DNA of 64,000 nucleotides, from the NCBI GenBank assembly GCA_964648865.1, contig CAZYLV010000001.1, positions 18,476 to 82,475 of the forward strand, written 5' to 3'. Under the pieces are notes generated by a model. That model saw only the letters and a list, made by a program, of their open reading frames with translations. It was not told the DNA's origin and made no database searches. Made by a program: the position numbers and the translations under genes. This stretch comes from an uncultured Gammaproteobacteria bacterium. GTDB taxonomy: Bacteria > Patescibacteriota > Patescibacteriia > 2-12-FULL-57-11. Of the stretch, positions 22,204-64,000 are shown piece by piece. Every line of letters starts with the position of its first letter. Within the stretch, counting starts at the first letter, position 1.

Positions 22204-22259
22204 GGCTCCTCTATACCCGAAACGGCCCGTTGGCTACAATGGGCGCAACCACTTCCCCT

Positions 22260-26843: not shown

Positions 26844-26930
26844 AGGTGGGGGTTATGCTCGCCTCCAGTATACCCTTGACGGGTGCCCCGGAAAAGCGTA
26901 TGGTGAGGCGTCCCAAAGGAGGGGCAACCG

Positions 26931-27371: not shown

Positions 27372-27432
27372 CCACAGGGCCGTTCTTCTTTTTTTATGCT
27401 ATAGTGATGGGGATTTCCACAAACGTTAGCCT

Positions 27433-31243: not shown

Positions 31244-32749
31244 TCATTTGAACTCCAGGTCGATGTGGTCGGCGAGGTTCGGCAACCGCTTGAGCCAGGC
31301 CGGCGTGACATCGATTTCGGCGTCGGAGACGCCGTCTGCGGACTCGAGCTGCGCTTCGGCCTCCTCGAGCGACAGGCCCGTGAGCCGCTCGCGGTCGAAG
31401 GCCTCGCTGGATTCCTTGAGGGCCGACTCGCCATGGGCCGTGACCGAGAGCGTGGCGCTCTTGGACGCCAGGTCGCTGCCGGCGAGCGTCACCTCCAGGC
31501 GCTCGGCATCGAGCCGGACGATCTCCTTGTCCTCGGGCGCGGCGGCACGCAGCTGCGCCTCGGCGACGCGCGCCAGGGCGTCCTTCTCGTAGAAGACGGC
31601 CTCGACATGCACGGCCACGGTGACGTCAAAGACATCCTGCTGCTCGCCGACCGCGGCCGTGGTCTCGCGGCGGACGATCGATTCCTTGAAGAACACGCCG
31701 CTGCCGACCTCCGGCCGGGAGAGCAGCGCCTTGAGCTTGTCGGCGGCCTCCGCCGCGACTTCCTTGGCTGCCGCGGCGTACGCGGCGTCGAGCTCCTCCT
31801 GGGTGACGATCGAGACCTCGCGGGCGCCGCCGGTCATGCTGGCGGTCGACACGGCGTACGTCAGCTCCTGCAGCGACGCCGGCAGGCCGGGGATGGTGAA
31901 GCGCGTCGGGTCGATGTCGCCGCCGGCGCCGGGCTGGTCGGCGCAGGCCCGCGTCTCGAGCCGGCCGTCGGCGGGCACGGAGACGGTGCTCTCGAGGCGG
32001 AAGAGCACGCCATCCGGGGAGAGCAGCCGCGTGGTGGCCACGAGCGCCTGGGTGCGGGATTGGGTATTGATGATGGTCACCGCGCCGCAGGCCTTGCCTT
32101 CCACCAGCCGTTTCTCGCCGGATGCCTGCACGGTGCGGGTGCCTTCGACGACCGTCTCGAGCACCGCGCCAGGCACGGCCTCGGCGTCGGCCGGCTCCGG
32201 GGAGACGGTCACGGTGAAGGCCGTGGACACAGGCAGCGGCGCGCGGGTCACGACGACCGTGGCGCGGGTGAAGGACAGGTAGAGGACGAAACCGAGCAGG
32301 AGGATGGCCAGGCCGATGAACGTCGTGGCCAACTTGCGGTACAGGGAAAGATGCACGGCCGGGCGCGGCGTGCGGCGCGGTTGGGAAAAGCGCGAGGGTC
32401 CGCCCTGCGACGGCGCCGCGGCGGGAGACGCCGCGCTCGGGCGGGGCTCGGCGTGGTCGATGGACATGTCGTGCGCCTCGGCCGCGGGCCGGATGGCCAA
32501 CGTCGCCGGACGCGCGGCGTCGACGTCGAGCGGCACGCGCTGTTCCTCCGGCACCACCGCCGGCGGCGGCACGAAACCGGCCGGAGGCACGGAGACCTCA
32601 TGCGGCGTCTCGGCGGAAAGCAGCGCCTCAAGCTCCGGCGCCAACGGCTTGGCCTCGGGCGACGGCGCGGGCGGCGGAGGCGGCGCGGCAGCCTTAGGCT
32701 TGCGCGCCGTGGCCTTTTTCTTTCCGCTCGGCTTCTTCTTCGTGGGCAT
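31244..32749 (-). CDS. Hypothetical membrane-anchored protein: Lys/Pro-rich N-terminus, one TM helix, large extracytoplasmic domain.
   Basis: ATG at 32749 preceded by a GGAGGA SD and a TGGTATAGT extended -10 (32779-32787, minus strand). Confidence 0.5.
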   Translation of the reverse strand: MPTKKKPSGKKKATARKPKAAAPPPPPAPSPEAKPLAPELEALLSAETPHEVSVPPAGFVPPPAVVPEEQRVPLDVDAARPATLAIRPAAEAHDMSIDHAEPRPSAASPAAAPSQGGPSRFSQPRRTPRPAVHLSLYRKLATTFIGLAILLLGFVLYLSFTRATVVVTRAPLPVSTAFTVTVSPEPADAEAVPGAVLETVVEGTRTVQASGEKRLVEGKACGAVTIINTQSRTQALVATTRLLSPDGVLFRLESTVSVPADGRLETRACADQPGAGGDIDPTRFTIPGLPASLQELTYAVSTASMTGGAREVSIVTQEELDAAYAAAAKEVAAEAADKLKALLSRPEVGSGVFFKESIVRRETTAAVGEQQDVFDVTVAVHVEAVFYEKDALARVAEAQLRAAAPEDKEIVRLDAERLEVTLAGSDLASKSATLSVTAHGESALKESSEAFDRERLTGLSLEEAEAQLESADGVSDAEIDVTPAWLKRLPNLADHIDLEFK

Positions 32750-32795
32750 AGTCCTCCATCCCCTCAAATGTCCTCCCTACTATACCACATCGCGT

Positions 32796-48537: not shown

Positions 48538-49338
48538 ATGGCGGAGGAACTCACCATCGACGGTCCCGGCGCCGAATTCGCGGCGGCCGCGGACCTCACC
48601 CGCGCGCGCCTGCAGGCGCAACGCGCGCAACCTTCCCCGCCCCCGGCGGCGCTGCTCGAGGCTGCTGCGGCGGATGAAGAGGAGCAGCTCCTGGCCGAGG
48701 AAGAAGCCGAGCAGGACGCCCGCCGGCTGCTCGCGCGCTCCCGCCGCGCTGCCGGCGCGCGCGGCGGTGCCGACGAGGGCGCGGCATCACTGGGCTCGGA
48801 GCTCACCAGCTACGCGGAGGAGCTCATCGAAGTCATCACCTTCTTCGTGCAGATCGAGACCATCATCGTGCCGTTCGCGCTCTTCTTCAAATGGTCGCTG
48901 CAGTTCTGGGGCGGGAACCTCGGCCTCATGCCCAGCCTGATCGGCCCGGCCGTGAAAGGGCTGGAAAAGGTCGCGGAAGCCGCATCGGCAGGCACCAAGA
49001 CCGCCGCCAAGGCGGGCTCCACGGGCGTGACGCAGGCCACCGGCCAGACCGCGAGCGCCTCCGGCGGAGGCGGCCTGCAGTCCGCCGCACAGCAGCTGGC
49101 AGGCGGAGGCGACGAGGGCGTCAAACCCATCTCCATCGGCCTCATCTTCCTGACCACGCTCATCTGGATCGCCCTTGGCGTCCTGATCGTCGCGAACTTC
49201 CTGGTGGTCGTCGCCGTGCCGCTTCTCCTGGCCGGCGGCGCGGCCGGCGTCTTCGTGGGCGTCTGCTCCGCGCTCGGCGACCTTTGCACAAACGAGACGT
49301 TCTCGAGCATCATAGAGTGGTTCTCGTCCATCTTCTAG
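48538..49338 (+). CDS. Hypothetical membrane protein with multiple TM helices and a Gly/Ala-rich loop.
   Basis: ORF starting 6 nt after the clpC stop. Confidence 0.5.
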   Translation: MAEELTIDGPGAEFAAAADLTRARLQAQRAQPSPPPAALLEAAAADEEEQLLAEEEAEQDARRLLARSRRAAGARGGADEGAASLGSELTSYAEELIEVITFFVQIETIIVPFALFFKWSLQFWGGNLGLMPSLIGPAVKGLEKVAEAASAGTKTAAKAGSTGVTQATGQTASASGGGGLQSAAQQLAGGGDEGVKPISIGLIFLTTLIWIALGVLIVANFLVVVAVPLLLAGGAAGVFVGVCSALGDLCTNETFSSIIEWFSSIF

Positions 49339-49343
49339 CGACT

Positions 49344-50558
49344 ATGCTCAGGAGGATCCTCGTCATCGCGGCGTTCGCGGCATTCACCCTCAGCATGGGG
49401 TTCGCCTTGTGGTGGTTCTTCTTCCGTCCGCCCACGGAACGGCTGCCGACGGTCGTCACCAACGCCAACGTCGCACCGCCGACGGGGCTCCCGGGCGCCG
49501 GCGTCGGACTCCCCGGCGCGGTCAACGCGCCGCCGGGCGGCGCGCCCCCTCCGGCTGCGCGCATCGCCAGCGGCGGGTTGACCCTGGCCGCGGCCGTCAC
49601 CCCCATCGCCGTCGACGCGGCGTCGCTCTCCCCCGACGGCGACGGGGTGCGGTTCTACGATCCGGACGAAGGCAAGTTCTACCGCGTCGATCCGGACACC
49701 GGGGAACGCACGGCGCTCTCGGACAAGCGCTTCCCCGACGTCGAGACCGTGGCCTGGGCGCCGACGGAAGACAAGGCGGTGCTGGAGTTCCCGGATGGCT
49801 CCAACGTGATGTTCGATTTCGGCTCGCAGCGCCAGGTGACGCTGCCCAAGCACTGGGAGGAGTTCCAGTTCTCCGCCGACTCGCGCAAGCTGGCGAGCAA
49901 ATCGCTCGGCATCGACCCGTCCAACCGTTGGCTGGTGGTCTCCAACGCCGACGGCTCGAGTGCCGTGCCCATCCAGGAGCTCGGCAACAACGAGGCCAAG
50001 GTCAACGTCAACATGTCCCCGACCGGACAGGTGGTGGCCTTCTCACGGACCGGCGAGGCGCAGGGCTTCGGCCGTCAGGAGATCCTGCTCATCGGCCAGA
50101 ACAAGGAGAACTTCAAGGGGCTCGTCGTCGAGGGGCTCAACTTCCAGGGCCAGTGGGCGCCGGACGGCAAGCGCCTGCTCTACAGCGCCGTCTCCCCGAC
50201 CGACGACTACCGCCCGATGCTCTGGGTCACCGATGCCTTCGGCCAGGACATCGGCAACAACCGCCGCAAGCTCAACCTCAACACCTGGGCGGACAAGTGC
50301 ACCTTCTCCGGCACGGCGACCCTCTTCTGCGCGGTGCCGCGCGAGCTGGAACGCGGCGTCGGCCTGGAACGGCGCATCGCCGACAACGTGCCGGACGACC
50401 TCTACAGCATCGACCTGGCCACCGGCGCGCGCCGGCTCGTCGCCCGTCCGGACTCGGACTCCACGATGACGCAGCTGATGGTCTCGCCGGACGGCCGCAC
50501 CCTGACCTTCGTCGAGCAGGGCTCGAACATCCTGCGGCAGATCCGTCTGGCGCCGTAG
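49344..50558 (+). CDS. Membrane-anchored TolB-like / PD40 beta-propeller protein.
   Basis: N-terminal TM helix and repeated beta-propeller-like segments (SPDG...). Confidence 0.5.
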   Translation: MLRRILVIAAFAAFTLSMGFALWWFFFRPPTERLPTVVTNANVAPPTGLPGAGVGLPGAVNAPPGGAPPPAARIASGGLTLAAAVTPIAVDAASLSPDGDGVRFYDPDEGKFYRVDPDTGERTALSDKRFPDVETVAWAPTEDKAVLEFPDGSNVMFDFGSQRQVTLPKHWEEFQFSADSRKLASKSLGIDPSNRWLVVSNADGSSAVPIQELGNNEAKVNVNMSPTGQVVAFSRTGEAQGFGRQEILLIGQNKENFKGLVVEGLNFQGQWAPDGKRLLYSAVSPTDDYRPMLWVTDAFGQDIGNNRRKLNLNTWADKCTFSGTATLFCAVPRELERGVGLERRIADNVPDDLYSIDLATGARRLVARPDSDSTMTQLMVSPDGRTLTFVEQGSNILRQIRLAP

Positions 50559-50559
50559 T

Positions 50560-51204
50560 ATGCCGCGACCGCCGCTCGTCGTGCTCTTCCTGTTCTCCCT
50601 CTCGGCGGTCCTGCTCGTGATTTTCGGCATGCTGGTCTTCCGGGACGACGGCCGGCAGCCGCCCGAGCCCGCTCCCCTGCCCGAGACCCGCAGCGCGCCC
50701 GAGGTGACGGTCGCGGACCCGGTGCGCGGCAACGCCGCGGCGGATGCGCCGACGATCGTCGTCTTCGGCGACTACCAATGCGAGTATTGCCGCCAGCTCG
50801 AGACGACGCTGGCCGAGATCGAGGTCGGACGTCCGGACGTGCGCATCGCCTGGAAGAACCTGCCGCTGCGTCTCGAGCATCCCCAGGCCCAATTGGCCGC
50901 GGAAGCGGCGCTCTGCGCCGGCCGCCAGGGGCGCCACTGGGAGATGCACGACCTGCTCATGGGCGTCGCCCTGCCGACGACGGCGGAGCTGGCCGTCCCC
51001 TTGGCCGAGGAGGTCGGCATCGACGCCGAAGCCTTCCGGACCTGTCTGGCGACCGGCGCCACACGGCCGCTCGTGGACCGGACCGTGGAGGAGGCGCTGG
51101 CGCTGGGCGTCGACGGCGTCCCCTACCTCTTCGTCGGCAGCCAGCGCTTCTCCGGATTCGTGGAACCCGCGGCGATCCTTGCGGCGCTCGAGGCGCAACG
51201 CTGA
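50560..51204 (+). CDS. dsbA: DsbA-family thiol:disulfide oxidoreductase.
   Basis: N-terminal TM helix and CEYC (CxxC) active site. Confidence 0.7.
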   Translation: MPRPPLVVLFLFSLSAVLLVIFGMLVFRDDGRQPPEPAPLPETRSAPEVTVADPVRGNAAADAPTIVVFGDYQCEYCRQLETTLAEIEVGRPDVRIAWKNLPLRLEHPQAQLAAEAALCAGRQGRHWEMHDLLMGVALPTTAELAVPLAEEVGIDAEAFRTCLATGATRPLVDRTVEEALALGVDGVPYLFVGSQRFSGFVEPAAILAALEAQR

Positions 51205-51226: not shown

Positions 51227-52681
51227 ATGCGGGCGCTCCGATTGTGCGCGGTCCCCGTGCTCGTCGGGGCGCTGTTGTCTCTGCTTGGCGTATCGTCCGC
51301 CGCGGCAGCGCCCGGCGCCATCGGACAGGAATGCCTCTCCGGAGACCGTTGCGATGCCGGACTCACGTGCGTGGACCTGGACGCAGGGGCCGCCGTCGCC
51401 AAGCGTTGCACCAGGACCTGCACGGACACCGGGATCGGTTCGCGCGACTGCCCGGAGCCGACCTCCTGCGTGGACGTCCCCGGTACCGGGCGCTACTGCG
51501 TGGACCTGACGGGCGCGACGTGGGAGGGGAGCTTCTTGACCGACACCGACTCCCCGGGAGGACCTCCCACGGAACCCGCATCCAACAGCAATGTCCCCTT
51601 CACGCCCGTGGCGCCGACGCTCGCGCTGCCCATCCCCACCTTCGGAGGTTTCTCCACCCTGCAGGTGCAGGACGTCGGCGGATCCCGGTTCATCGACATC
51701 CCCTTCGTCGCGGAGTACGTCGTCGCCCTCTACCGATACGCCATCGGGATCCTCGTCACCCTCGGCACCGTCATGGTCGTGGTGGCCGGATTCCAGTACC
51801 TCACGGCGCGCGGCAACGCGTCCGTCATCCAGGCGGCGCGCGGGCGGATCCTCAACGCGCTGATCGGCATCGGCATCGCGCTCGGGAGCTACCTCATCCT
51901 CGCCGCCATCAACCCGGAGCTGGTCAACTTCCGCAACATCCGGGTGAACCTCATCCAGACGGTGGACGTCGAGAGCGTGCTGCGGACGACGAGCGAAGCC
52001 ACCGGTTCCGACAGCCCGACGAATCCCGAATGCGATCCGTCCTCCGGCGGCTACGCGCCCGGCGCGAGCGGATCGTCGGCGGGCGGCGGCAGCTGCCCGG
52101 TCTCGCTCGAGGCCCCGTTCGTCGACGGCGGCGGGCGACGTCCGGAGCGTACCGAGGAATTCTTCCGCGAGTACGGCAGCGCCTCGGTCTCCGGCGGCAC
52201 CCCCCGCGAGCGGGTCATCCGCGCCGCACAGGCGGCGGCCTCCTGCGAACTGGTCATGGGCTCCTGCGGCAACACGGTGGAATCGATCTACGAACTGGCG
52301 GGCGTCCGGCTGCGTACGACGCATGAGATCGGCTCCGAGAACGTCCGCTACCTCCTCAGCATCAACACCTGCGAACGGGGCGACCGCACATGCAAGCAGG
52401 CGGCGCGCTGCTCGGCGTACGACCGTTTCGAAGGGGACATCGACGGATGGCCGGATGCCTGGGCGCGCGAACTGCAGCCCGGGGATGCCTTCTGGATCTA
52501 CAACGCGAACGCGGCACCGGCCGGCCAACACGCCGCCGTCTTCATGGGTTGGGCGGGCGGCGGCCGCGCCAATGTCGTGCAAGGCGGCAACAGCGGTGAG
52601 ACCTGGCGCGTCCGCGGCGGGACCATCTGCATCACGAGCGCCTGCGGCGGCGTGCTCACGAGGACACAGCGGCCGGAGTGA
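51227..52681 (+). CDS. Secreted cysteine-rich protein with an embedded VirB2/TrbC pilin-like two-TM module.
   Basis: Signal peptide, Cys-rich domain, module YVVALYRYAIGILVT...ARGNASVIQAAR...LILAAINPELVNFRNIR, then a second Cys-containing domain. TGtGCTACAAT extended -10. Confidence 0.6.
   Translation: MRALRLCAVPVLVGALLSLLGVSSAAAAPGAIGQECLSGDRCDAGLTCVDLDAGAAVAKRCTRTCTDTGIGSRDCPEPTSCVDVPGTGRYCVDLTGATWEGSFLTDTDSPGGPPTEPASNSNVPFTPVAPTLALPIPTFGGFSTLQVQDVGGSRFIDIPFVAEYVVALYRYAIGILVTLGTVMVVVAGFQYLTARGNASVIQAARGRILNALIGIGIALGSYLILAAINPELVNFRNIRVNLIQTVDVESVLRTTSEATGSDSPTNPECDPSSGGYAPGASGSSAGGGSCPVSLEAPFVDGGGRRPERTEEFFREYGSASVSGGTPRERVIRAAQAAASCELVMGSCGNTVESIYELAGVRLRTTHEIGSENVRYLLSINTCERGDRTCKQAARCSAYDRFEGDIDGWPDAWARELQPGDAFWIYNANAAPAGQHAAVFMGWAGGGRANVVQGGNSGETWRVRGGTICITSACGGVLTRTQRPE
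51594..51975 (+). repeat. Duplicated pilin-like module, copy 1 (about 75% nt identity to 53414-53792).
   Basis: Seen directly. Confidence 0.6.
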
Positions 52682-52726: not shown

Positions 52727-54511
52727 ATGACCCGGATGCATCGAGCGCTTACGGTCGCCGCCCTCGCCTGCCTGCTCCTGCCTCCATCTCCGGTCGCCGC
52801 GGAGGGGCGGCGCATCGCCTGCTTGGGCGATTCCATCACCAACCAGTACGGACCGGTCTTCGAGACCGCCGACGGCGAACGGTGCACGGTCGTGGCGCGT
52901 GACGGCGCCTCCACGGGCGCCATCCTTGACCTGTTCCGCGAACGGGTGCTCGGCGGCGGGTTCACCGACCTCATCGTCCGCGCGGGACGCAACGACATCT
53001 ACTCCGGCCGCGGAGTCGGCAACGCCAGGACGAACCTCGGCACGATCTACGAGGAGGCGCGGCGGGCGGGCATGCGCGTCGTCGCCGTGAGCATGCTTCC
53101 CCACAAGGGCTATGCCAGCTGGAACGATTCCGTCCAACGGCAGACGGACGAGCTGAACGCGTGGCTCGCATCGGCCCCGGTGGACCGGTTCGTGGACGCG
53201 GACGCGCACCTGGCCGCATCGGACGATCCGGACCGCCTGAACCTCGCCTACGACCGCGGCGACCACCTGCACCTCTCCAACGACGGGAAATGCGCCTTGG
53301 CGAGCTTCATCGCCGAGCGCGCCTTCGGGGGCTCCGGCGGCTGCTCGCCGAGCGGCCGGAGCTCCCCCGCCAGCACCGGCGACGGAGGCGTCTCCCTCGA
53401 GGAGACCGACACGCCCTTCGAGCAGATCGTGCCGACGCTCCAGCTGCCCATCCCGACCTTCCCGGGCTTCTCCGACATCCAGGTGCTCCAGGACGGCGAG
53501 AACCGCAGCATCGACATCCCTTTCCTGGCCGAGTACGTCGTCGCCCTGTACCGCTACGCCATCGGCATCATGGTGACGATCGCCATGGTCATGGTCGTGG
53601 TGGGCGGCTTCCAGTGGACGACGGCGCGCGGCAACGCCTCCGCCATCCAAGAGGCCAGGGACCGCATCACCAACGCCGTCATGGGCATCGTGCTGGCGCT
53701 CGGCAGCTACGCCATCCTGGCCGCCATCAACCCCGAGCTCGTCAATTTCCGCAACATCCGCATCGACCTCATCCGGCGGCGCGAGGTCATCTACCGGGAG
53801 AACGGCGGCATCGAGGAGGGTTGCCGCGGCGGCAGCTGCGGGACCCGGCGGCCGATCGCCAATACGGACTTCGACGAGCTCTTCCAGCGCTACGCCGGCT
53901 GCGCCGGGGTGGACTGGCGCATGCTCAAGGCCGTGTCCTACATCGAATCCGGACTGAACCCGGAAATCGTCAACCGCTACGGCTTCGTGGGCCTTTTCCA
54001 GATCGCGCCGCGCTTCTGCCACCTCTCGCGCCAGACCTGCACGGAAGAGGCGCTGCTCGACCCGGAGATCAACACCTACGTCGCCGCCACCCAGCACCTG
54101 CGCAACGGCGCGCGTATCGTCCGCGACACCTGCCCGAGCATCACGGACGCCCACACCTTCGCCACCCTCATGTACTACGCGCACAACAGCGGCGCCGGGG
54201 CGCTGCGCGCGGTGCTCAACCCGCGGCCGAGCCGCTACCTGCCTGAGGGTGGCGCCGGCTGCACCAACGACCTGGAGGTGCTGACCCGGACCGCCGCGAC
54301 CTTCCAGCGCAATTTCCGCCCCGACATCCCCAACGCCGAGGGCCGCATGACGACCGCCCGCCGGGTCGGCGACCGGGCGCGCGAGCTCGGCGTCACGGAT
54401 CCGCTCGCCGACGGCTCCTGCCCGTCCGAGCCCGCCCCCGGCAGCCGGTCGTCCTCGAGTGACGCTCCGGAACCCGGCGTCGGCGGCGGTCCAGGCACCT
54501 CCGAACTCTGA
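52727..54511 (+). CDS. Secreted multidomain protein: SGNH/GDSL hydrolase, VirB2/TrbC pilin-like two-TM module, SLT lytic transglycosylase.
   Basis: GDSITNQ (SGNH block I), the conserved module, and SLT motifs (YIESGLNP, GLFQI). TGgTACAAT extended -10. Confidence 0.65.
   Translation: MTRMHRALTVAALACLLLPPSPVAAEGRRIACLGDSITNQYGPVFETADGERCTVVARDGASTGAILDLFRERVLGGGFTDLIVRAGRNDIYSGRGVGNARTNLGTIYEEARRAGMRVVAVSMLPHKGYASWNDSVQRQTDELNAWLASAPVDRFVDADAHLAASDDPDRLNLAYDRGDHLHLSNDGKCALASFIAERAFGGSGGCSPSGRSSPASTGDGGVSLEETDTPFEQIVPTLQLPIPTFPGFSDIQVLQDGENRSIDIPFLAEYVVALYRYAIGIMVTIAMVMVVVGGFQWTTARGNASAIQEARDRITNAVMGIVLALGSYAILAAINPELVNFRNIRIDLIRRREVIYRENGGIEEGCRGGSCGTRRPIANTDFDELFQRYAGCAGVDWRMLKAVSYIESGLNPEIVNRYGFVGLFQIAPRFCHLSRQTCTEEALLDPEINTYVAATQHLRNGARIVRDTCPSITDAHTFATLMYYAHNSGAGALRAVLNPRPSRYLPEGGAGCTNDLEVLTRTAATFQRNFRPDIPNAEGRMTTARRVGDRARELGVTDPLADGSCPSEPAPGSRSSSSDAPEPGVGGGPGTSEL
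53414..53792 (+). repeat. Duplicated pilin-like module, copy 2.
   Basis: Seen directly. Confidence 0.6.
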
Positions 54512-54550: not shown

Positions 54551-55879
54551 ATGCCCAAAAGCGCTCCCCTCTTCCGCTGCGGCAACTGTGATGCCCAGTT
54601 CCCCAAATGGAGCGGGCGTTGTTTCGGCTGCGGCCGCTGGGGGACGGTCGAGGAGAGCGCGCCGGCCCCGCCTGAGGCCGCCGGCCGACCGACCGCCGCG
54701 GCGGCGAAGAGCCTGCCCGCCGCACAGGTCGCCGGCCGCGCCCCGGAGCGCGTGCCCACCGGCAGCGCGGAGCTCGATCGGGTGCTCGGCGGGGGGCTCG
54801 TGCCCGGCTCGCTCGTGCTCGTCGCCGGGGAGCCCGGGGTCGGCAAGTCCACGCTGCTGCTCTCGCTCGCCGAGCGCCTCGGCCGACCCGTGCTCTACGT
54901 CTGCGGCGAGGAATCGCCGGAGCAGATCGCCCTGCGCATGCGGCGCATGGGCTGTGCGGGCGAGCGGCTCTCCTTCCTCACCGAGACCGACGCCGCCGTC
55001 GTCGCCGCGACGGCCCGCGCAGAACGCCCGGCGCTCGTCATCGTCGACTCCGTGCAGACCCTGCGCGCCGCGGAGGGCGGCGGCGAGCCCGGCGGCATCG
55101 GGGAGCTGCGCGCCGCCATCGCCCGGCTCGCCGAGGTCGCCAAGAAGGACGGCATCACGACGCTGCTCATCGGGCAGGTCACCAAGGACGGGAGCGTGGC
55201 CGGCCCCAAGACGCTCGAACATCTCGTCGACGTGGTGCTGACCGTGGAGGGCGACGGCGTGCGCCCGCTGCGCATGATGCGGGCGGCAAAGAACCGCTTC
55301 GGCTCGAACCGCGAGGTGGGGCTCTTCGAGATGGCCGACCGCGGACTCGTCGACGCCGCGGACGTCCACGCCGCCGCCCTCGACGCCCGCGCCGCGCCCG
55401 TGCCCGGGACGGCCATGGCCGTGGTCCGTGAAGGCAACCGCACCTTGCTCCTCGAGGTGCAGGCGCTGACCAACAAGACGGCCTTCGGCTATCCGGTGCG
55501 TCGCGCCTCCGGCTTCGACACCAACCGGCTGAACGTGCTGCTCGCGGTGCTCGAGCGCCGCGGCGGACTGTCGCTCGCGCAGCACGACGTCTACGTCAAC
55601 GTCGCCGGCGGACTGAGCCTCGAGGAGCCGGCGGCCGACCTGCCGGTGGCCATGGCCATCGCCTCCTCCGCCCTCGGCACGGCCTTGCCTGCGCGCACCG
55701 GGCTCTACGGCGAGATCGGCTTGACCGGGGAGATCCGGGCGGCCCCGGACGCCAAGGAGCGCGCCGCCGACGCCGCACGCCTGGGGCTCACGGAGACCCT
55801 CGGCCCTGCGACCCTCGGCGACGTCCGCGCCGCCATCGCCTGGCTCAAAAAGAAAAACGCGCCGCAGGGCGGCGCATGA
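54551..55879 (+). CDS. radA: DNA repair protein RadA/Sms.
   Basis: Zinc finger CGNC...CFGC and Walker A GEPGVGKSTLLL. Confidence 0.9.
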   Translation: MPKSAPLFRCGNCDAQFPKWSGRCFGCGRWGTVEESAPAPPEAAGRPTAAAAKSLPAAQVAGRAPERVPTGSAELDRVLGGGLVPGSLVLVAGEPGVGKSTLLLSLAERLGRPVLYVCGEESPEQIALRMRRMGCAGERLSFLTETDAAVVAATARAERPALVIVDSVQTLRAAEGGGEPGGIGELRAAIARLAEVAKKDGITTLLIGQVTKDGSVAGPKTLEHLVDVVLTVEGDGVRPLRMMRAAKNRFGSNREVGLFEMADRGLVDAADVHAAALDARAAPVPGTAMAVVREGNRTLLLEVQALTNKTAFGYPVRRASGFDTNRLNVLLAVLERRGGLSLAQHDVYVNVAGGLSLEEPAADLPVAMAIASSALGTALPARTGLYGEIGLTGEIRAAPDAKERAADAARLGLTETLGPATLGDVRAAIAWLKKKNAPQGGA

Positions 55880-56430: not shown

Positions 56431-58518
56431 TCACTCGGGGTGCACGACGTCCTCGAAGCGGGCCAGCCGTCCGCGGAGGGCCGGATGCGCGTCCAGCGAG
56501 GCGTCGATGTCGAGCAGCTCCCGGCAGCTCTCCTGGAGCGCGGCGATCCGCCGGGCGTCGAGCAGCGCCGGCGACCAGACCCCCTGCATGCCGGATTGCG
56601 CCGTCCCCCAGAGCTCGCCGGGGCCGCGCAACGCCAGATCCGTCTCGGCCAGGGCGAAACCGTCGGACGAATCCACGAGGGCCTGCAGGCGGGCCGCTGC
56701 GGCAGGCGTCTCGTTGTCCGTGAGCAACAGGCAGGTCCCCGGCGCGCTGCCGCGGCCGACCCGCCCACGCAGCTGATGGAGCTGGGCCAACCCGAAGCGG
56801 TCGGCCGAACGCACCACGATGAGCGCGGCCCGCGGCAGGTCGATGCCTACCTCGATGACCGTCGTGGCCACGAGCACGTCCCCCTCCCCCGCCGCCATGG
56901 CCCGCATGACGGTGCGCTTCTCGACGCTCTTCATCTTGCCGTGCAGCAGCAGGACGCGCGCCTCGGGCAAGGCCCCGACAAGCCGCCGGTGCTCGTCGAT
57001 CGCGGCCTCGGCGGCGGCGTCGGCGCGCCCGGCGATGGACGGGCAGACCACGAAGGCCTGGTGCCCCTGCGCGACGCAGGCGGCGAGCGCCGCGTCCGCG
57101 GCCGCGGTCTCGCCCAGGAGCAGCCGCGTGGCCACCGGCCCGCGCCCGGCCGGACGGGCCGCAAGCACCGAGACGTCCAGGTCGCCAAACAGCGAGAGGG
57201 TCAGGGTGCGCGGGATGGGCGTGGCGGTGAGCGAGAGCAGGTGCGGCAACGCCCCGTCGGCCCGCTTCTTGCGGAGCGCCTGCCGCTGACGGACGCCGAA
57301 GCGATGCTGCTCGTCGACCACGGCCAGGCGCAGGTCGGCGAAGGCCACGTCGCCCTCGATGAGCGCATGCGTGCCGACGACGAGCGATGCCGTGCCGGAT
57401 CGCACCGCGTCGCGGACCGCCTCCTGCCGCACGCGCGCCGAACCCGGCAGCGGCAGATCCTCGCCGCGGCGCATCAGGCGCTGGGAGCCGGCGGCGAGCA
57501 GGGCGAGGACGACGTCCGTACCCGCGAACATCGAGGCCAAGGTGCGCAGGTGCTGCTCGGCCAGGACCTCGGTGGGCACGAGCACCGCAGCCTGGGCCCC
57601 GGCCGCAGCCACGGCCCGCGCCGCGATGGCCGCGACGGCCGTCTTGCCGGAACCGACGTCGCCGTTCACCAGCCGGTTCATGGGCCGCGGCCTGCCGAGG
57701 TCCTGGATGGCCTCCCAAGCGGCGCGGCGCTGCCCGTCGGTCAACGGGAACGGCAGGCCGGCCACGAAGGCCTTGATGTCCGCCTCCGGGAACGGGACCG
57801 GCGGGGCGCTCGCCGAGGTGAGGTCGCGCCGGGCGCGCTCCGAGACGAGCACGCGCAGGAACATGTCCTCCACGGCGAAGCGCTCCAGCGCGGCGTCGAG
57901 CGTCCGCTGGTCCGACGGGAAGTGGACGGCCCGGGTCGCCGAGGCGATGTCCGGCAGGGAGAAGCGGCTCCGCACGGCGTCGGGCAGCCACTCCGTGAGC
58001 GCGGCGGCCGCGGGCAGCGCAGCCTTGGCGGCCAGGCGCAGATGCTTGACGGAGAGCGTCCCGGCGGTCGGATACACGGGGACGATGCGGCCGGTGTGCG
58101 TCTGCTCGGCGCGGACAGCCTCGATGGTCGGCGAGAGGAACTGCAGCCCGTAGGCGGTGCGGCGCGCCTTCCCGGCAAGGAAGACGTCGCTGCCCGGCTT
58201 GTGGGTCTTCACCAAAAAATGCTGACCGAACCACAGGACCTTGGCCTTGCCGCTCCCGTCGGCGACGACGGCCTCGGTCATCAACCGGCGCGGCCCGCCG
58301 AAGCTGCGGCGGTTGCGGATCTGTTCGAGCCGGACACGGACGGTGGCTTCCTCGCCCGGGACGACGGCGGACAGCGGCAGCGTCCGCGAGTAATCCTCGT
58401 ACCGGAACGGGTGGTGAGCCAGCACGTCGGCGAGCGTGACGAGACCCAGGCGCTCCAGGGACCTGGCATGGCGGCGCAGCAGCGGCATCGCGGAAAGGAG
58501 GGGGGTCTCAAGCGGCAT
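56431..58518 (-). CDS. recG: ATP-dependent DNA helicase RecG.
   Basis: Helicase motifs GDVGSGKT and DEQHRFG, wedge domain. 695 aa. The track ORF extends spuriously over the tRNA genes. Confidence 0.9.
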   Translation of the reverse strand: MPLETPLLSAMPLLRRHARSLERLGLVTLADVLAHHPFRYEDYSRTLPLSAVVPGEEATVRVRLEQIRNRRSFGGPRRLMTEAVVADGSGKAKVLWFGQHFLVKTHKPGSDVFLAGKARRTAYGLQFLSPTIEAVRAEQTHTGRIVPVYPTAGTLSVKHLRLAAKAALPAAAALTEWLPDAVRSRFSLPDIASATRAVHFPSDQRTLDAALERFAVEDMFLRVLVSERARRDLTSASAPPVPFPEADIKAFVAGLPFPLTDGQRRAAWEAIQDLGRPRPMNRLVNGDVGSGKTAVAAIAARAVAAAGAQAAVLVPTEVLAEQHLRTLASMFAGTDVVLALLAAGSQRLMRRGEDLPLPGSARVRQEAVRDAVRSGTASLVVGTHALIEGDVAFADLRLAVVDEQHRFGVRQRQALRKKRADGALPHLLSLTATPIPRTLTLSLFGDLDVSVLAARPAGRGPVATRLLLGETAAADAALAACVAQGHQAFVVCPSIAGRADAAAEAAIDEHRRLVGALPEARVLLLHGKMKSVEKRTVMRAMAAGEGDVLVATTVIEVGIDLPRAALIVVRSADRFGLAQLHQLRGRVGRGSAPGTCLLLTDNETPAAAARLQALVDSSDGFALAETDLALRGPGELWGTAQSGMQGVWSPALLDARRIAALQESCRELLDIDASLDAHPALRGRLARFEDVVHPE

Positions 58519-58596
58519 GGCGCGATTGTAGCCGTCTCCGCCGCTCCTTGACAAAAGGCGGTTTTTGCGGTACAGCTGCGCAGGAGGAGGACGTTC

Positions 58597-59568
58597 ATGA
58601 GAATCTGCACCCTGTTCCTGCTGGCGTCGGCGCTCATGCCGACGCAGGCCGTCGCCCAGGAGTCCGTGCTCGTCATGGACATCGCCGTGGACGACACCCA
58701 GTTCCAGGCCGCCGGCGAGCTGGTCACAGACCAGCTGCGTGAGGGCATCGCCGCGGTGCGGGGCTGGGATCTCAGCCCGACGCGGACGACGCTCGACGCC
58801 GAGCGACGGAGGCACGGCTGCCGTGACGGGTTCACGGACCACGACTGCCTCGCCGCCATCGCGGCGGACGCAGGCGTCGGCCACCTCGTCTTCGGACGGC
58901 TGCGCGCCCGTGTGGGCAGCCCCGGCGAGTTCACGATCGAGCTGCAGCACTACGAGGTGGCAGCCGGCCGCTTCGTCGGCAGCACCTTCCGGTCGCTGCG
59001 CGTCGAGGGGATCGACACGGCGGACGCCGAGCTCCTGGCCCGCATCCAGACCATCCTCGGCGAGGACGACCTGCGGATCATGCCGCGCGCGCCGGTCTCG
59101 ACCGCGTCGACGCGACCCCGTCCGACCGGCCCGCCGAACCGCGACCTGACGGTCGGCTTCGGCATCGCGTCGCTCGCGGTCGGCGCGCTCTTCCTCGGAG
59201 GGGCGACCGTCTCCTGGGTGGCGATGGCCGACCTCGGACGCGACAGCGACTTCCAGGCCTATCGCCAGCGCGTACCCATGGGCAGCGCCACGGACGTCTG
59301 CGCCGAGGCCCGTGCCGACCGCGGCTGGGAGCGCGGGCAGGTGTCCGCGGACGTGGCTGCCGCCCAGACGGCCCGGGTGCGCACCATCTGCTCGGACGCC
59401 GCTTCGCTGGAGGTCTGGGAGTGGGTCCTGCCGCTCGCGTCGGCCGCCTTCGTGGGACTCGGCATCGGCCTCCTGCTGTTCGACCCGGGTCCGGGCGAAC
59501 CCCAGGTCACGGTGACCCCCCGCGTCGGCCTCAGCCACGCCGGACTCTCGATCAGCGTCGCGTTCTAG
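58597..59568 (+). CDS. Hypothetical secreted protein with a C-terminal TM anchor.
   Basis: Signal peptide MRICTLFLLASALMPTQAVAQE and AGGAGGAGG SD. Confidence 0.55.
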   Translation: MRICTLFLLASALMPTQAVAQESVLVMDIAVDDTQFQAAGELVTDQLREGIAAVRGWDLSPTRTTLDAERRRHGCRDGFTDHDCLAAIAADAGVGHLVFGRLRARVGSPGEFTIELQHYEVAAGRFVGSTFRSLRVEGIDTADAELLARIQTILGEDDLRIMPRAPVSTASTRPRPTGPPNRDLTVGFGIASLAVGALFLGGATVSWVAMADLGRDSDFQAYRQRVPMGSATDVCAEARADRGWERGQVSADVAAAQTARVRTICSDAASLEVWEWVLPLASAAFVGLGIGLLLFDPGPGEPQVTVTPRVGLSHAGLSISVAF

Positions 59569-59624
59569 GCCTCGGACACCCCGTCCAGGCCTCTTTTCTT
59601 TTCCCGGACGATGCCGCCCGCGGC

Positions 59625-59654
59625 GTTGACACGGCGGGTCCGGACGGCTACACT
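59625..59654 (+). promoter_or_regulatory. Promoter for the tRNA-Ser pair (TTGACA, 18-nt spacer, TACACT).
   Basis: Sits 14 nt upstream of the tRNA 5' end. Confidence 0.5.
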
Positions 59655-59667
59655 GTCGGCGCGGTCT

Positions 59668-59761
59668 GGAGAGGTACCCAAGTGGTTGAAGGGGGGAGAT
59701 TGCTAATCTCCTAGGTCGGGGTTTTCCCGGCGCGAGGGTTCGAATCCCTCCCTCTCCGCCA
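59668..59761 (+). tRNA. tRNA-Ser (anticodon GCT).
   Basis: Cloverleaf with long variable arm and encoded CCA. Confidence 0.85.
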
Positions 59762-59771
59762 GAAGGTTCGC

Positions 59772-59861
59772 GGAGAGGTGCCCGAGTGGTTGAAGGGAAC
59801 GGTCTTGAAAACCGTAAGGCCCGCAAGGGTCTCGGGGGTTCGAATCCCTCCCTCTCCGCCA
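59772..59861 (+). tRNA. tRNA-Ser (anticodon TGA).
   Basis: Cloverleaf with long variable arm. Acceptor and T arms identical to the first tRNA-Ser. Confidence 0.85.
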
Positions 59862-59882
59862 ACGTGGTACACTACCCCTCGT

Positions 59883-60383
59883 ATGGCGGACGAACCCAAG
59901 CTCCGCGGCGAACACGGCCTGGTCCACCTGGCATGGATGGTCGATGAATACCCCGCCTACCGCCGCGGCTGGCGCTGGTACGCCATCGCCTTCCTGGTCG
60001 GCGCCGGCCTCGTCGTCTGGGCGCTGGTCACGCTGAACTTCCTGTTCGCGCTGATCGTCGTCATCTTCGCCATCGTGCTGGCGCTGTCCTCGGCGCGCAA
60101 GCCGGTCCGCCTGCGGTTCGCGGTCTGCGAGGACGGCCTGGAGATGGGGCACCGCTTCATCCCCTGGACCGACGTCTCGCGCTTCTGGATCGTCTACGAG
60201 CCGCCGACGGTCAAGTCGCTGTACGTCGACTTCAAGAGCGCGCTCGTGCCGGACCTGATGGTCCCGCTCGAGCAGATGAACCCAAACGCGGTCCGCAAGA
60301 CGCTGCTGGAGTACGTCGACGAGGATCCGTCCCGCGATGCCGAGCCGCTCTCGGACTTCCTGGCACGGGTACTCAAGTTTTGA
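59883..60383 (+). CDS. Hypothetical membrane protein (two TM helices plus a bacterial PH-like C-terminal domain).
   Basis: ORF starting MADEPKL. Confidence 0.5.
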   Translation: MADEPKLRGEHGLVHLAWMVDEYPAYRRGWRWYAIAFLVGAGLVVWALVTLNFLFALIVVIFAIVLALSSARKPVRLRFAVCEDGLEMGHRFIPWTDVSRFWIVYEPPTVKSLYVDFKSALVPDLMVPLEQMNPNAVRKTLLEYVDEDPSRDAEPLSDFLARVLKF

Positions 60384-60389
60384 AGGAGA

Positions 60390-60466
60390 CGCAGCCATAG
60401 CTCAGCTGGATAGAGCGTCAGCTTGCGGAGCTGAAGGTCGCAGGTTCGACTCCTGCTGGCTGCACC
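60390..60466 (+). tRNA. tRNA-Arg (anticodon reads GCG).
   Basis: Cloverleaf GCAGCCA...TGGCTGCACCA. Confidence 0.75.
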
Positions 60467-60467
60467 A

Positions 60468-60505
60468 TGAAAAGACGTCCACGTCCGTGGACGTCTTTTC
60501 TGTCT
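60468..60505. terminator. Bidirectional terminator.
   Basis: GAAAAGACGTCCACG-tcc-GTGGACGTCTTTTC. Confidence 0.6.
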
Positions 60506-60511
60506 GCGGGA

Positions 60512-61186
60512 TCAGTCGGCGGCGAATGTCCAGGCGGCGATCCGCGTCGCGCCACCCTGCCGCAGGGCGGCGGCAGCGGCCGTGAGCGTCGCCCCCGTGG
60601 TCACGACGTCGTCGACGAGGAGATACGCCGCGCCGGGATCGACGGCGCCGCGCACGGCGAAGGCGCCGTCGACGTTCTTGGCGCGCGCCGCGCGGTCGAG
60701 GGCCGTCTGGGTCACGGTCCGCCGGACCCGGACGAGCGGCTGCGTCACCGCCCCCAGGCCACGGCCGGCGAGCGACCCCGCCAGCGTCGCCGCCTGGTTG
60801 GCGCCGCGCCGACGCAGGCGGGCGGCATGCATGGGCACCGGGACGATGGTCCAGCGCGTCGGCCTGAGCGCGCCGAGGCCCGACCAGCGCCCCAGGGCCT
60901 CGTCCGCGAGCGCGGCGGCCTCCGGACGCCGCTCGTACTTGAGGGCATGCACGACCATGCGCACCGCGGCGTCCTGGAAACGCGTCACGCTCCAGACCGC
61001 GAGCGCGTCGAGCCGCCGCGCCTCCGGCACGAGCGGGATGGCGCGCCAGCAGTCCGGGCAGGCGACGGCGCCTTCCCGTCCGCATCCTCCGCAGAAATCA
61101 GGAAAGAGCGCGTCGAGCACGCCCTTCCGGAACCGAGCGAGGGCGGCCGTCACTGGGCCGACCAGGTCGCGGAGTCCACCAGCCAT
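60512..61186 (-). CDS. comF: ComF family phosphoribosyltransferase.
   Basis: Zinc finger CGGCG...CPDC and PRTase motif LLVDDVVTTGATL. Confidence 0.75.
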   Translation of the reverse strand: MAGGLRDLVGPVTAALARFRKGVLDALFPDFCGGCGREGAVACPDCWRAIPLVPEARRLDALAVWSVTRFQDAAVRMVVHALKYERRPEAAALADEALGRWSGLGALRPTRWTIVPVPMHAARLRRRGANQAATLAGSLAGRGLGAVTQPLVRVRRTVTQTALDRAARAKNVDGAFAVRGAVDPGAAYLLVDDVVTTGATLTAAAAALRQGGATRIAAWTFAAD

Positions 61187-61776
61187 AGGTCGCCGCTGCG
61201 GCGGAATGCCAGGGTCAGCGTGCGGTAGTCGACGGTCGGCTGGTCGTCGCCGGATTGGGTCGAGCGCTGCGCGGCGACCGTGACCGTGGCGCGGCCGCCG
61301 GTCGCGTCGAGGGATGCGAGCGTCGTGGAGACGGCGCGCGTGGTCACGCCCACGTACCCGTCCCCGCCGCCCCCGGCCGAGCGGGCCTGGGCGATGGTTC
61401 GCTCCGTTGCCTCGCGCATCGACGCCGTCATGAGCGGATAGAGGTCGACGAGGTTCTGGAAGTCGGCCTGGTTGGAGTAGGTGCCGAACCGCTCTGCGAA
61501 CTGCCCGGCCGAGGAGACGAGCCGCTGCTCGAGGATCTCCTGATCCGAGGCGCGGGTGAACGTCTCGGCGGGTGCGGCGGGCGCGGACGCCGTCGGGACG
61601 TTGGCGTTGACCTGCGGCAAGCCTCCGGCCGGAGCGAGCGACGCCGTCGGCGTCGGCGCTTCGGCGGCGGGCTCCTCGGGCGCCGGCGCCGGACGCAGCA
61701 GGACGGCGGCCACGGCCGCCACCACGGTGACGAACACGACGACCCCGGCAACGATCAAGAGCATCCGCCGGCTCAT
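61150..61776 (-). CDS. Hypothetical membrane-anchored protein, a possible VirB8-like component.
   Basis: N-terminal TM helix and Pro/Ala linker. ATGA overlap with the upstream VirB4 gene. Confidence 0.45.
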   Translation of the reverse strand: MSRRMLLIVAGVVVFVTVVAAVAAVLLRPAPAPEEPAAEAPTPTASLAPAGGLPQVNANVPTASAPAAPAETFTRASDQEILEQRLVSSAGQFAERFGTYSNQADFQNLVDLYPLMTASMREATERTIAQARSAGGGGDGYVGVTTRAVSTTLASLDATGGRATVTVAAQRSTQSGDDQPTVDYRTLTLAFRRSGDLWLVDSATWSAQ

Positions 61777-63671
61777 ACGCCGCCCTCCTGTTCGGCGAGC
61801 TGCTGCTGGAACTCCTTCTTGGCCTGCTCGATCTCAAGCAGCTGGCGCGGATCGGTGGTGATGACCTGGTCCTCGGCGTACGAGGCGACGATCTTGATGG
61901 CGGCGTGCTTCTGGCCGGCGAAGAAGATGCCCTCGCCCACCCCGCTCTCGAGCAGCAGGTACTTCTCCCCCTGCGTGAGCAGGAAGGTCTTGGTGACCAG
62001 CTCGATGGAGGCCGGCGACTGCTTGAGCAGCAGCTGGATGGAGGAGTTGGTGACGATGGCCTGCCCGTAGGGCGAGGTCAGGAAGTCGTTGACGTCCTGG
62101 GTGATGGTGGTCACCCCGAGGTAGTACTTGCGGCAGCGTTTGACGAGCGCGAAGACGAACTTGGCCGAATCCTCCTGCTGCATCAGCCACCAGGCCTCGT
62201 CGATCACGAGGATGCGCCGCTTGCGCTCCGAGCGCACCACGTTCCAGATGTAGTTGACGATGCTGTAGATGGCCAGCGGCCGCAGCTCGTCTTCCAGGTC
62301 GCGCACCGAGAAGATGACCAGCGTGTTGCGGATGTCGACCGTGGTCGGCGAGTTGAAGAGCCCGGCGAAGGTGCCCTCGGTGTACTTCTTGAGCCGTTCC
62401 ACCAGGTCGCCGGATCCCTCCATGCCTTGGAGGACCTCCTGGAAGTCCTGGAAGATCGGCGGCTCGACGCGCGCCAGGTCGACGCCGGGGACGATGTCCT
62501 TCTTGGCGTAGGTCTCGAGCAGCGCCCGGTCGATGATGGAGTCCTCGGCGGTCGTCAGCTTGCCGCCGAGCATCAATCGGACGAGACCCTTCAACGTGAT
62601 GACGGCGCTGCGGATGATGTCCTCCACGGAATACTGCTCCCCCACCGGCCGGGGCAGCTCGAAGGGGTTGATCTTGGAATCCGAGGCCAGCGAGATGTTG
62701 ATGTACGTGCCGCCGACGGCGTCCGAGAGATGCTTGTATTCCATCTCCGGGTCGATGATCAGCACCTCGGAGCCGAGCATCAGCGACCGCAGCACCTCGA
62801 GCTTGACGGCATACGATTTTCCGGCGCCGGAGGTCGCGAACACGACCATGTTGGCGTTCTGGAGGGAAAAACGGTCGAACAGGATGAGCGAGTTGTTGTG
62901 GCGGTTGATGCCGTAGAGGATGCCGTTGTCCGACGTCAGGTCCGCCGAGGTGAACGGGAAGCTCGAGGCGATCGGCGAGCTGTTCATGTTGAAGGTCACC
63001 TGCAGCTCGTCGTTGCCGAGCGGCAGCGTGGAGTTGAAGCCCTGCTCGGCCTGGTAGAAGACGCGCTTGGAGTAGATGAGCTTGGCGCCGAAGACGTTCT
63101 CGATGTCGAGCGAGAACTTGTCCAGCTCCTCCTTGCTCTTGCCGTAGATCGTGATGTACAGCGCGAACTGGAAGAAGTGCTCGACGCCCTGCGTAAGGTC
63201 GTCGCGGAGCTTCTCGATGTCCCGCAGCGCCGTCTCCCGGAGCGGATCGCGCGGCGCGCCCTTCTCGGCATCGGAGAGGATCTGCGCCTCGAGGGTGCCG
63301 ACCTTGTTCTTGAGCTGCTTGAGGATGACGTGCGCCTTGACGGGGTAGAAGAACATCCCCACGTCGAGCATCTGGTTGATGTTGAGGATGGGCGTGAACC
63401 ACCCCACGCCCACGTAGCGCGGATAGGTGACCACGAAGACGGTCCGCACGTAGAGGTCACCGAGCAGCACGAAGGACGGCTCGACCTTCATGGCCGCGGG
63501 GGCGATGAGGTCGCGGATGGAGACGGTGCCTTTCCGGTAGACACGCTCCTCCTCGAGCGCCTCCTTCTCCACGGCGACCTTCTTTGCGGCTTCCGTGTCC
63601 GTCACCAAGGTCCCGCCCACCTCGACGGGGGCCCGCTTGCCGCGCAGCGCTTTGAACGGGTTGATGGCCAT
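61773..63671 (-). CDS. VirB4/PrgJ-type conjugation/T4SS ATPase.
   Basis: Walker A FATSGAGKSY and Walker B VIDEAWWLM. Confidence 0.8.
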   Translation of the reverse strand: MAINPFKALRGKRAPVEVGGTLVTDTEAAKKVAVEKEALEEERVYRKGTVSIRDLIAPAAMKVEPSFVLLGDLYVRTVFVVTYPRYVGVGWFTPILNINQMLDVGMFFYPVKAHVILKQLKNKVGTLEAQILSDAEKGAPRDPLRETALRDIEKLRDDLTQGVEHFFQFALYITIYGKSKEELDKFSLDIENVFGAKLIYSKRVFYQAEQGFNSTLPLGNDELQVTFNMNSSPIASSFPFTSADLTSDNGILYGINRHNNSLILFDRFSLQNANMVVFATSGAGKSYAVKLEVLRSLMLGSEVLIIDPEMEYKHLSDAVGGTYINISLASDSKINPFELPRPVGEQYSVEDIIRSAVITLKGLVRLMLGGKLTTAEDSIIDRALLETYAKKDIVPGVDLARVEPPIFQDFQEVLQGMEGSGDLVERLKKYTEGTFAGLFNSPTTVDIRNTLVIFSVRDLEDELRPLAIYSIVNYIWNVVRSERKRRILVIDEAWWLMQQEDSAKFVFALVKRCRKYYLGVTTITQDVNDFLTSPYGQAIVTNSSIQLLLKQSPASIELVTKTFLLTQGEKYLLLESGVGEGIFFAGQKHAAIKIVASYAEDQVITTDPRQLLEIEQAKKEFQQQLAEQEGGV

Positions 63672-63674
63672 AGC

Positions 63675-63989
63675 TCAGGCTTCCTCCACGCGGAGCTTGC
63701 CGACGTCGGTGAGCTTCTCGGCGTCGGAGACGATGGGGTTATAGGCGTTGTAGTAGAGCTCGATGAGCGACTGCGTGTCGAGCATCACCGCGCTCACCCC
63801 CATCGAGCCGAGGTTCGCGGCCACCGTATCGACACGCAGCAGCAGGTCCTTCCGTCGTTCCTGGAAGCGCGCCTCCTGGAGCCGGATGGTCAAGGCCGGC
63901 GTGATGGCCTCCTGCATGCGCTGGAAGAACCCCTTGCGCTTGTTGGTGAACGGGTCGAACGGGACGACCACGTAGAAGCGCTTGCTCAT
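63675..63989 (-). CDS. Hypothetical small protein upstream of the VirB4 gene.
   Basis: ORF with an ATG at 63989, 1 nt from the VirB4 start. Confidence 0.4.
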   Translation of the reverse strand: MSKRFYVVVPFDPFTNKRKGFFQRMQEAITPALTIRLQEARFQERRKDLLLRVDTVAANLGSMGVSAVMLDTQSLIELYYNAYNPIVSDAEKLTDVGKLRVEEA

Positions 63990-64000
63990 GATCTGCCCGA

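Follow-up and report, generated by a model that had tools for sequence, protein, structure and literature searches.

The closest described relatives of the locus considered here are the type IV secretion systems (T4SSs) of Patescibacteria, whose VirB4 ATPases form a Patescibacteria-specific clade, sister to MPF_FATA, and whose acquisition has been placed at the base of the phylum (Quinonero-Coronel et al., 2025; PMC12102498). In these systems VirB4 is accompanied most often by TrsD, and PrgI/VirB3, VirB6 and VirB2-like pilins of the PF18895 family are also represented; VirB8/PrgL-like proteins are found almost only in class ABY1, relaxases are almost absent, and the T4SS loci of ABY1 contain comF, recG and radA (PMC12102498). 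In S. epibionticum, epibiotic growth requires a homologous T4SS (SEML1_0006-0019; Wang et al., 2023; PMC10633639), and a nomenclature review from 2025 speculates that signals, or material taken up from the host, could pass through the T4SS and its pilus (PMC12857230). Here we describe a locus at the end of a 64,000-nucleotide (nt) stretch of DNA, the window in what follows (contig CAZYLV010000001.1, positions 18,476 to 82,475, assembly GCA_964648865.1), which we interpret, with a probability of about 0.85, as the 3' half of a chromosomal T4SS operon of an Uhrbacteria-like patescibacterium, most likely non-conjugative and serving exchange with a host bacterium upon contact. Systems of this kind have been described before, the locus being an ordinary example, and our refinements are incremental. 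As in the other Patescibacteria, it is chromosomal, it encodes a VirB4 of MPF_FATA ancestry, with TrsD-like and PrgI/VirB3 proteins adjacent and PF18895 proteins nearby, and no relaxase has been found; as in other ABY1, a VirB8/PrgL-like protein is encoded, and comF, recG and radA are neighbors, in the same order. Nothing differs in kind.

At a G+C content of about 69%, long open reading frames (ORFs) occur in every frame of the window, and 43 ORFs of at least 50 amino acids (aa) are found in its last 7 kb. The four ORFs of the cluster are nevertheless real genes, not high-GC artefacts, based on their codon-position composition (G+C of 0.86-0.95 at third positions, GC3, versus 0.35-0.60 at second positions, GC2) and on the many homologues found in the same gene order. 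The comparison set consists of 80 loci (L004-L083) from Patescibacteria metagenome-assembled genomes (MAGs), representing species-level genomes and picked by VirB4 similarity, and these MAGs are named mostly Uhrbacteria, Falkowbacteria and Magasanikbacteria. The source of the window is a high-GC, Uhrbacteria-like patescibacterium, whose GTDB class we take to be ABY1. Look-ups of Logan contigs with the VirB4 and a 208-aa protein encoded next to it returned contigs of 2-4 kb, one of which (L001, approximately 4 kb) matches 2858 nt of the window at 100% identity and reaches 1308 nt further, and a sequence with 94% DNA identity to that contig (L087) shows the same upstream genes; a metagenome scan with an exact 50-nt pattern from L001 produced no match.

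The gene at 61773-63671 (minus strand) encodes a 632-aa VirB4-family T4SS ATPase, as the original prediction had it, with the N-terminal motifs quoted there (APAAMKVEP and YPRYVGVGW) at residues 57 and 83, and with both the Walker A (GAGKS, residue 282) and the Walker B (VIDEAW, residue 489) motifs intact. The protein matches Pfam P-loop_TraG (1.5e-25), and it scores 337.6 bits (E of 1.5e-100) against NF045971, the NCBIfam model for the CD1110 family, above the curated cut-off of 325. Its closest solved relative is the VirB4 of Thermoanaerobacter (PDB 4AG5, 7.8e-49 over residues 243-605), and its best plasmid relatives, at no more than 36% identity, all belong to Firmicutes or Actinobacteria. 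Based on these three lines of evidence, the label “PrgJ-type” that the protein had originally been given is right only in the broad Gram-positive sense, and the protein, which fits the CD1110 model, is of the monoderm (MPF_FATA) type. It shares 73-91% identity with its counterparts in the 80 MAGs, and its GC3 of 0.95 is typical of native codon usage. The match to NF045971 covers profile positions 178-730 of 752, and thus the complete N-terminal region is not contained within the 632-aa protein.

The missing part appears to be encoded by the adjacent upstream gene. What had been described as a small, uncharacterized ORF of 104 aa is not a complete gene, because the identical contig L001 carries a whole gene of 227 codons (positions 951-1634), and the ATG of the shorter ORF is an internal methionine codon of the latter. 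The window retains its C-terminal 108 codons (63675-64000, minus strand), cut by the window end. Its stop codon (63675-63677) leaves a 3-nt gap to the VirB4 ATG, and thus of the ATGA overlaps proposed on both sides of VirB4 only the downstream one stands, in which the ATG of the 208-aa gene overlaps the VirB4 stop (61773-61776). The 227-aa protein is TrsD-like, even though it remains below the 200-bit cut-off of NF041427, the NCBIfam TrsD model (30.9 bits, 2.1e-7), and it matches positions 2-104 of the CD1110 VirB4 profile; its family counts 3494 matches and corresponds to a precomputed Pfam family, PF26593 (TraC-like). A Foldseek search with its structural model returned TrwK/VirB4 chains as all of the top 14 matches, with the next ones only at E of about 0.5, while a PDB profile search with the family returned no meaningful match. 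Using hhalign, the protein was matched to the product of the gene upstream of a Firmicute VirB4 with 99.7% probability (E of 1.2e-26). We also considered the possibility of a duplicate of the N-terminal domain of VirB4, and this was ruled out, as hhalign detected no similarity to the first 280 residues of VirB4. With this similarity absent, with the CD1110 profile split between the two proteins, and with only VirB4 chains as top Foldseek matches, the 227-aa protein is best described as homologous to the N-terminal segment of long VirB4 proteins but encoded separately, a missing module rather than a duplicate. It had been suggested that the cut ORF be compared to VirB3; that assignment belongs instead to the next gene upstream, which in L001 encodes a two-helix, 144-aa protein of the PrgI family (VirB3-like; Pfam, 3e-9), preceded by the C-terminus of a larger protein. 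In two of the relatives the spacing between the TrsD-like gene and VirB4 is altered: about 1.2 kb is inserted in L081, and 7.4 kb in L077 (CAZMOB010000004.1, 2243-9682), where VirB4 measures 711 aa and where the nine ORFs of the insertion, scanned against Pfam, produced no match.

This arrangement has precedents among the conjugation modules of Firmicutes. The Trs modules of pGO1/pSK41 (TrsC-TrsD-TrsE) and the CD1110 modules, such as one on a Pontibacillus plasmid (NZ_CP062975.1), likewise combine a small VirB3-like gene, a TrsD-like gene of about 230-270 codons and a VirB4 gene of about 620 codons, and in Pontibacillus these are a small VirB3-like gene, the 274-aa homologue identified by hhalign and a CD1110 VirB4 of 621 aa. 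The differences are that these modules are plasmid-borne, that the VirB4 identity is no higher than 35%, and that in Pontibacillus VirB4 is followed by an M23 peptidase gene, as opposed to a VirB8-like gene and then comF. With the same layout present on the Pontibacillus plasmid, the pairing of a TrsD-like gene with a short VirB4 is inherited from monoderm conjugation modules, as opposed to being a patescibacterial innovation.

In almost every locus with enough flanking sequence (profile and phmmer searches, 80 loci), the genes follow a single order: a polytopic protein of about 900 aa, an optional protein of about 430 aa, a protein of about 470 aa, PrgI, TrsD-like, VirB4, VirB8-like and ComF. 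This order is kept in about 75 of the 80 related genomes, with median projected gaps of 13-36 nt between the cluster genes, and the polytopic protein is encoded upstream in 61 loci and in L087. Thus the locus continues past the window end, as anticipated originally, judging from L001, L004, L087 and other relatives, and the neighbors of VirB4 are T4SS partners, as opposed to unrelated genes around an isolated remnant. The upstream proteins of L004 (433, 174, 474 and 902 aa) had no match in Pfam. One of these, a cysteine-rich 174-aa protein with C-terminal transmembrane helices, has its gene on the opposite strand, within the upstream part of the cluster (L004, 6727-7251, minus strand; L087, 4569-5093, minus strand), and is found only in the closest relatives (3 loci and L087). 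Across the loci, which were picked by VirB4 similarity, the median identity is highest for VirB4 (77%), followed by the TrsD-like protein (59%), PrgI (51%), RadA (47%), RecG (41%), the VirB8-like protein (34%) and ComF (32%).

The likeness to Firmicute plasmids could also be explained if the cluster were a decayed remnant of an integrated conjugative element of Gram-positive origin, of which VirB4 would be what is left. The order of the VirB4, TrsD-like and PrgI genes is indeed the same as on the Firmicute plasmid, and the closest relatives outside of Patescibacteria are plasmid-borne, at 35-36% identity. However, all the cluster genes are intact, with catalytic motifs present, codon usage is native (GC3 of 0.95), and the cluster is flanked by housekeeping genes, with chromosomal core genes encoded elsewhere in the window (GyrB, GatB, ThrRS, DnaE, PheS/T, GlmM, a Clp ATPase, a release factor, PrmC, QueA, FtsW, MiaA, RseP and HtpX). 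The same position and order are found in 80 species-level genomes, VirB4 is more conserved than RecG or RadA (median identities of 77% versus 41 and 47%, in loci picked by VirB4 similarity), and the acquisition of the system has been placed at the base of the phylum (PMC12102498). Conservation, codon usage and chromosomal context thus rule out a remnant for practical purposes, leaving this explanation with a negligible probability. The cluster encodes a chromosomal, lineage-wide machine and not a conjugative element. Neither relaxase nor coupling-protein families were detected among the 42 window ORFs scanned against Pfam, which comprise all the GC3-supported ORFs from about 400 aa upward, and for this reason the system is most likely not conjugative. 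Of the three kinds of genes whose search had been recommended, only a weak VirB6 candidate, the polytopic protein, was thus recovered, upstream.

The gene following VirB4 (61150-61776, minus strand) encodes a 208-aa bitopic membrane protein that had been proposed to be VirB8-like, with an NTF2-type fold, and this proposal is supported by the analyses of its profile, its predicted structure and its position. A profile of the globular domain (40 sequences), searched against the whole PDB at E of up to 10, matched only PrgL of pCF10 (7AED, 8.7e-4). The AlphaFold2 model (mean pLDDT of 83, exceeding 90 in the globular domain) starts with MSRR and a transmembrane helix (residues 3-26), followed by a disordered Pro/Ala-rich linker and an NTF2-like domain (78-205) made of three helices and a four-stranded curved sheet. 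The alignment behind the model is shallow, due to the word-index homologue search returning only 10-18 sequences, even with the 40-sequence profile. In a Foldseek search against the PDB, the model matched an IcmL-like protein (5CNL, 4.2e-4) and PrgL (7AED, 5.3e-4), along with DotI, CagV, TcpC, TrwG, TraE and the Brucella VirB8, with target-normalized TM-scores of 0.58-0.73 for the single-domain VirB8-class chains and of 0.35-0.46 for the longer TcpC and 8RTD chains. A homologue directly follows VirB4 in 77 of the 80 loci.

Alternatively, the 208-aa protein may be a generic membrane-anchored protein of the NTF2/SnoaL-like type, for example wall-associated or lipid-binding, unrelated to VirB8 and carried by the operon as a passenger. 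The protein has no VirB8 match in Pfam, and only sub-threshold noise (Bd3614_N, Rv0361_Cterm) was returned from Pfam and NCBIfam; one of its homologues is annotated as SnoaL_4, and ARC6, the CaMKII hub and a bile-acid dehydratase score close to the VirB8-like proteins in Foldseek. Its cytoplasmic tail is also very short, approximately 4 residues, and classical VirB8 proteins have tails of about 40 residues. Nonetheless, PrgL is the sole sequence match in the PDB, VirB8-class proteins of T4SSs account for about 23 of the 50 listed Foldseek chains (11 distinct entries), the bitopic topology of the model fits VirB8, and in 77 of 80 loci the gene holds a fixed place, immediately following VirB4 and with overlapping start and stop codons. 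In the published survey, PrgL/VirB8-like proteins near virB4 are likewise almost confined to class ABY1 (PMC12102498). We therefore consider an unrelated passenger unlikely, and the topology, the fold, the PrgL match and the fixed position, taken together, support a VirB8-like role. With such a gene following virB4 in nearly all the relatives examined, as compared to about 50 VirB8 homologues reported previously (PMC12102498), the published VirB8 counts for the phylum are probably underestimates.

The Prg/Pcf system of pCF10 (PrgI, PrgJ, PrgL) thus resembles the locus in its PrgI-family VirB3 and in PrgL, to which the 208-aa protein is matched by both profile and fold, and it differs in VirB4, which in the window fits the CD1110 model. 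The pCF10 system also includes a relaxase, a coupling protein and surface adhesins, and it is not known to have a VirB2-like pilin.

VirB2-like candidates are present in the window, 7-12 kb away from the cluster. Pilin candidates had been proposed at 51-54.5 kb, and these are indeed hairpins of the PF18895 (T4SS_pilin) family, embedded in large multidomain proteins. One is a secreted, 484-aa protein (51227-52681, plus strand) with a cysteine-rich N-terminal region, a hairpin (51614-51952) and an unannotated C-terminal domain, for which the whole protein matches PF18895 at 0.0051. The second is a protein of 594 aa (52727-54511, plus strand) combining a GDSL hydrolase domain (Lipase_GDSL_2, 2.2e-9), a hairpin (53432-53770; T4SS_pilin, 1.1e-4) and an SLT lytic transglycosylase domain (8.1e-10), which would join VirB2-like and VirB1-like functions in one polypeptide. 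Its hairpin segment alone matches PF18895 at 9.9e-6, and all 16 of the aligned hairpin segments from the window and its relatives match the family (best, 2.3e-13), while a PDB profile search with the hairpin returned no meaningful match. This differs from Saccharibacteria, which possess arrays of small pilins. Directly upstream of the two genes are those for a TolB/PD40-like beta-propeller (49337-50558) and then a DsbA-like thioredoxin (50560-51204), and a further protein of 266 aa (48538-49338), with hydrophobic C-terminal segments, has no family match.

The last gene of the unit (60512-61186, minus strand) encodes a ComF protein of the ComFC type, 224 aa, with a four-cysteine zinc ribbon and a phosphoribosyltransferase-like domain, in agreement with the original annotation. 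It matches TIGR00201 (comF) at 7.2e-22 over positions 1-189 of 190, with 78.2 bits, below the cut-off of 233.55, and GntX at 4e-21; matches to Pfam DZR_2 and Pribosyltran are weak. The motifs CGGC and CPDC are found at residues 32 and 43, and a phosphoribosyl pyrophosphate-type motif, LLVDDVVTTGAT, at residue 189. We interpret the protein as a divergent but full-length member of the ComFC-type family. The first 37 nt of the gene are shared with the 3' end of the 208-aa gene, or only a GTGA if translation begins at an alternative GTG at 61153. In 59 of 70 loci the projected distance between the VirB8-like gene and the comF that follows it does not exceed 150 nt, and comF is predicted to belong to the same transcription unit as the T4SS genes. 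A candidate bidirectional terminator at the operon end is formed by a perfect 9-bp hairpin (60470-60499, GACGTCCAC / GTGGACGTC), with a 4-nt loop and flanks of AAAA and TTTT, which was read from the sequence, its plus-strand version also being returned by a terminator scan. It lies 19 nt past the ComF stop and abuts the 3' end of a tRNA-Arg gene (GCG anticodon, 60391-60467), convergent with comF. Two adjacent tRNA-Ser genes (GCT and TGA anticodons, 59668-59861) also lie just downstream of the operon, and the long ORFs that run across tRNA genes, such as 56431-59862, are high-GC artefacts.

Beyond the tRNA genes, the conserved neighborhood includes a RecG helicase (56431-58518, minus strand), recognized by RecG-type motifs in its translation, and syntenic in relatives with E-values down to 6e-290, and RadA/Sms (54551-55879, plus strand), matching Pfam KaiC, AAA_25, ChlI and Lon_C, along with a zinc ribbon. 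RecG, RadA, a small membrane protein and both pilin-hairpin proteins are syntenic in many relatives. It is in this context that a different function needs to be considered, that of a nucleic-acid import machine similar to ComB of Helicobacter or Ced of Archaea, in which the T4SS would draw host or environmental DNA or RNA through the envelope, and ComF, on the cytoplasmic side, would receive single-stranded DNA and hand it over to RadA and RecG. Import would explain why comF, recG and radA are kept beside the T4SS in ABY1. The overlap of comF with the VirB8-like gene, its place at the end of the same transcription unit and its short gap in 59 of the 70 relatives all fit this possibility, as does the synteny of RecG and RadA with the T4SS, seen in the relatives and in the published loci (PMC12102498). 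ComB of Helicobacter pylori (functioning with ComEC and ComFC) is also a T4SS with neither relaxase nor coupling protein, as found here, and its pathway also involves a protein of the ComF family; the differences are that ComB is of the diderm MPF_T type and that comF is outside of its operon. VirB4 produces weak matches to the models of the CedB and CedD DNA-import ATPases, ComFC is reported to bind single-stranded DNA and to function in DNA transport (PMC9005727), and Patescibacteria lack nucleotide synthesis (PMC10633639).

Several observations speak against import, however. S. epibionticum can dispense with ComEC, ComF and DprA, which serve transformation, and its competence depends on ComEC, while its T4SS is essential (PMC10633639); these genetic data speak against ComF as an obligate partner of the T4SS. 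The adjacency of comF is confined to one class (PMC12102498). The tRNA genes and unrelated small genes are equally syntenic, making conserved order alone weak evidence, ComF is among the least conserved of the cluster genes (median identity of 32%), and the CedB and CedD matches are far below their cut-offs. We consider import a minor possibility. If true, the T4SS of ABY1 would have been converted into a monoderm counterpart of ComB or Ced, used for feeding on host DNA or RNA.

The most likely function is that of a non-conjugative system for contact-dependent exchange with a host, a role put forward for Saccharibacteria, in which the homologous T4SS is essential. By reference to the solved T4SSs, a VirB4 hexamer would serve as the motor, docked at the membrane via the two-helix PrgI/VirB3 protein and the separate TrsD-like N-terminal module. 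The NTF2-like domain of the 208-aa protein would act as a scaffold on the external side of the membrane, and the polytopic protein could be part of the channel. The VirB2-like hairpin proteins encoded 8 kb away, one of them with wall hydrolase domains, may contribute pilus or channel parts and breach the wall. A number of points weigh against this interpretation. The gene content at this locus points to neither a cargo nor a direction of transport, and genes for a coupling protein or a relaxase could be present in other parts of the genome. The assignment of the polytopic protein to VirB6 is weak, with Pfam TrbL matches in 2 of the 36 members of the polytopic family (best, 1.8e-4) and no match in a PDB profile search with this family. 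The E-values for the VirB8-like protein are marginal (about 1e-3 to 1e-4), with scores almost as good for other NTF2-like folds. The model of the TrsD-like protein is of moderate confidence (pLDDT of 68), and the genes upstream of the TrsD-like gene, being outside the window, were seen in the identical 4-kb contig and in close relatives.

Some additional genes of the window deserve mention. Two keep their place by the T4SS/ComF/RecG block in many relatives: one encoding a two-helix membrane protein of about 160 aa (59895-60383), with weak similarity to DUF3093, and one encoding a secreted or anchored protein of 323 aa (58597-59568), with no family match. Four large ORFs (438-811 aa) with a good codon-position signal, at 21993-24428, 25536-26852 (minus strand), 27430-29313 and 31244-32776 (minus strand), have no Pfam match at E of 0.05 or less.

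Overall, the window presents a clean example of the ABY1 layout, not a new kind of system. The T4SS is one of the few envelope machines common to most Patescibacteria, a very large group of host-dependent organisms, and its homologue is essential for epibiotic growth in the only species tested genetically. The operon link of comF is the one feature that could yield a testable idea as to the substrate.

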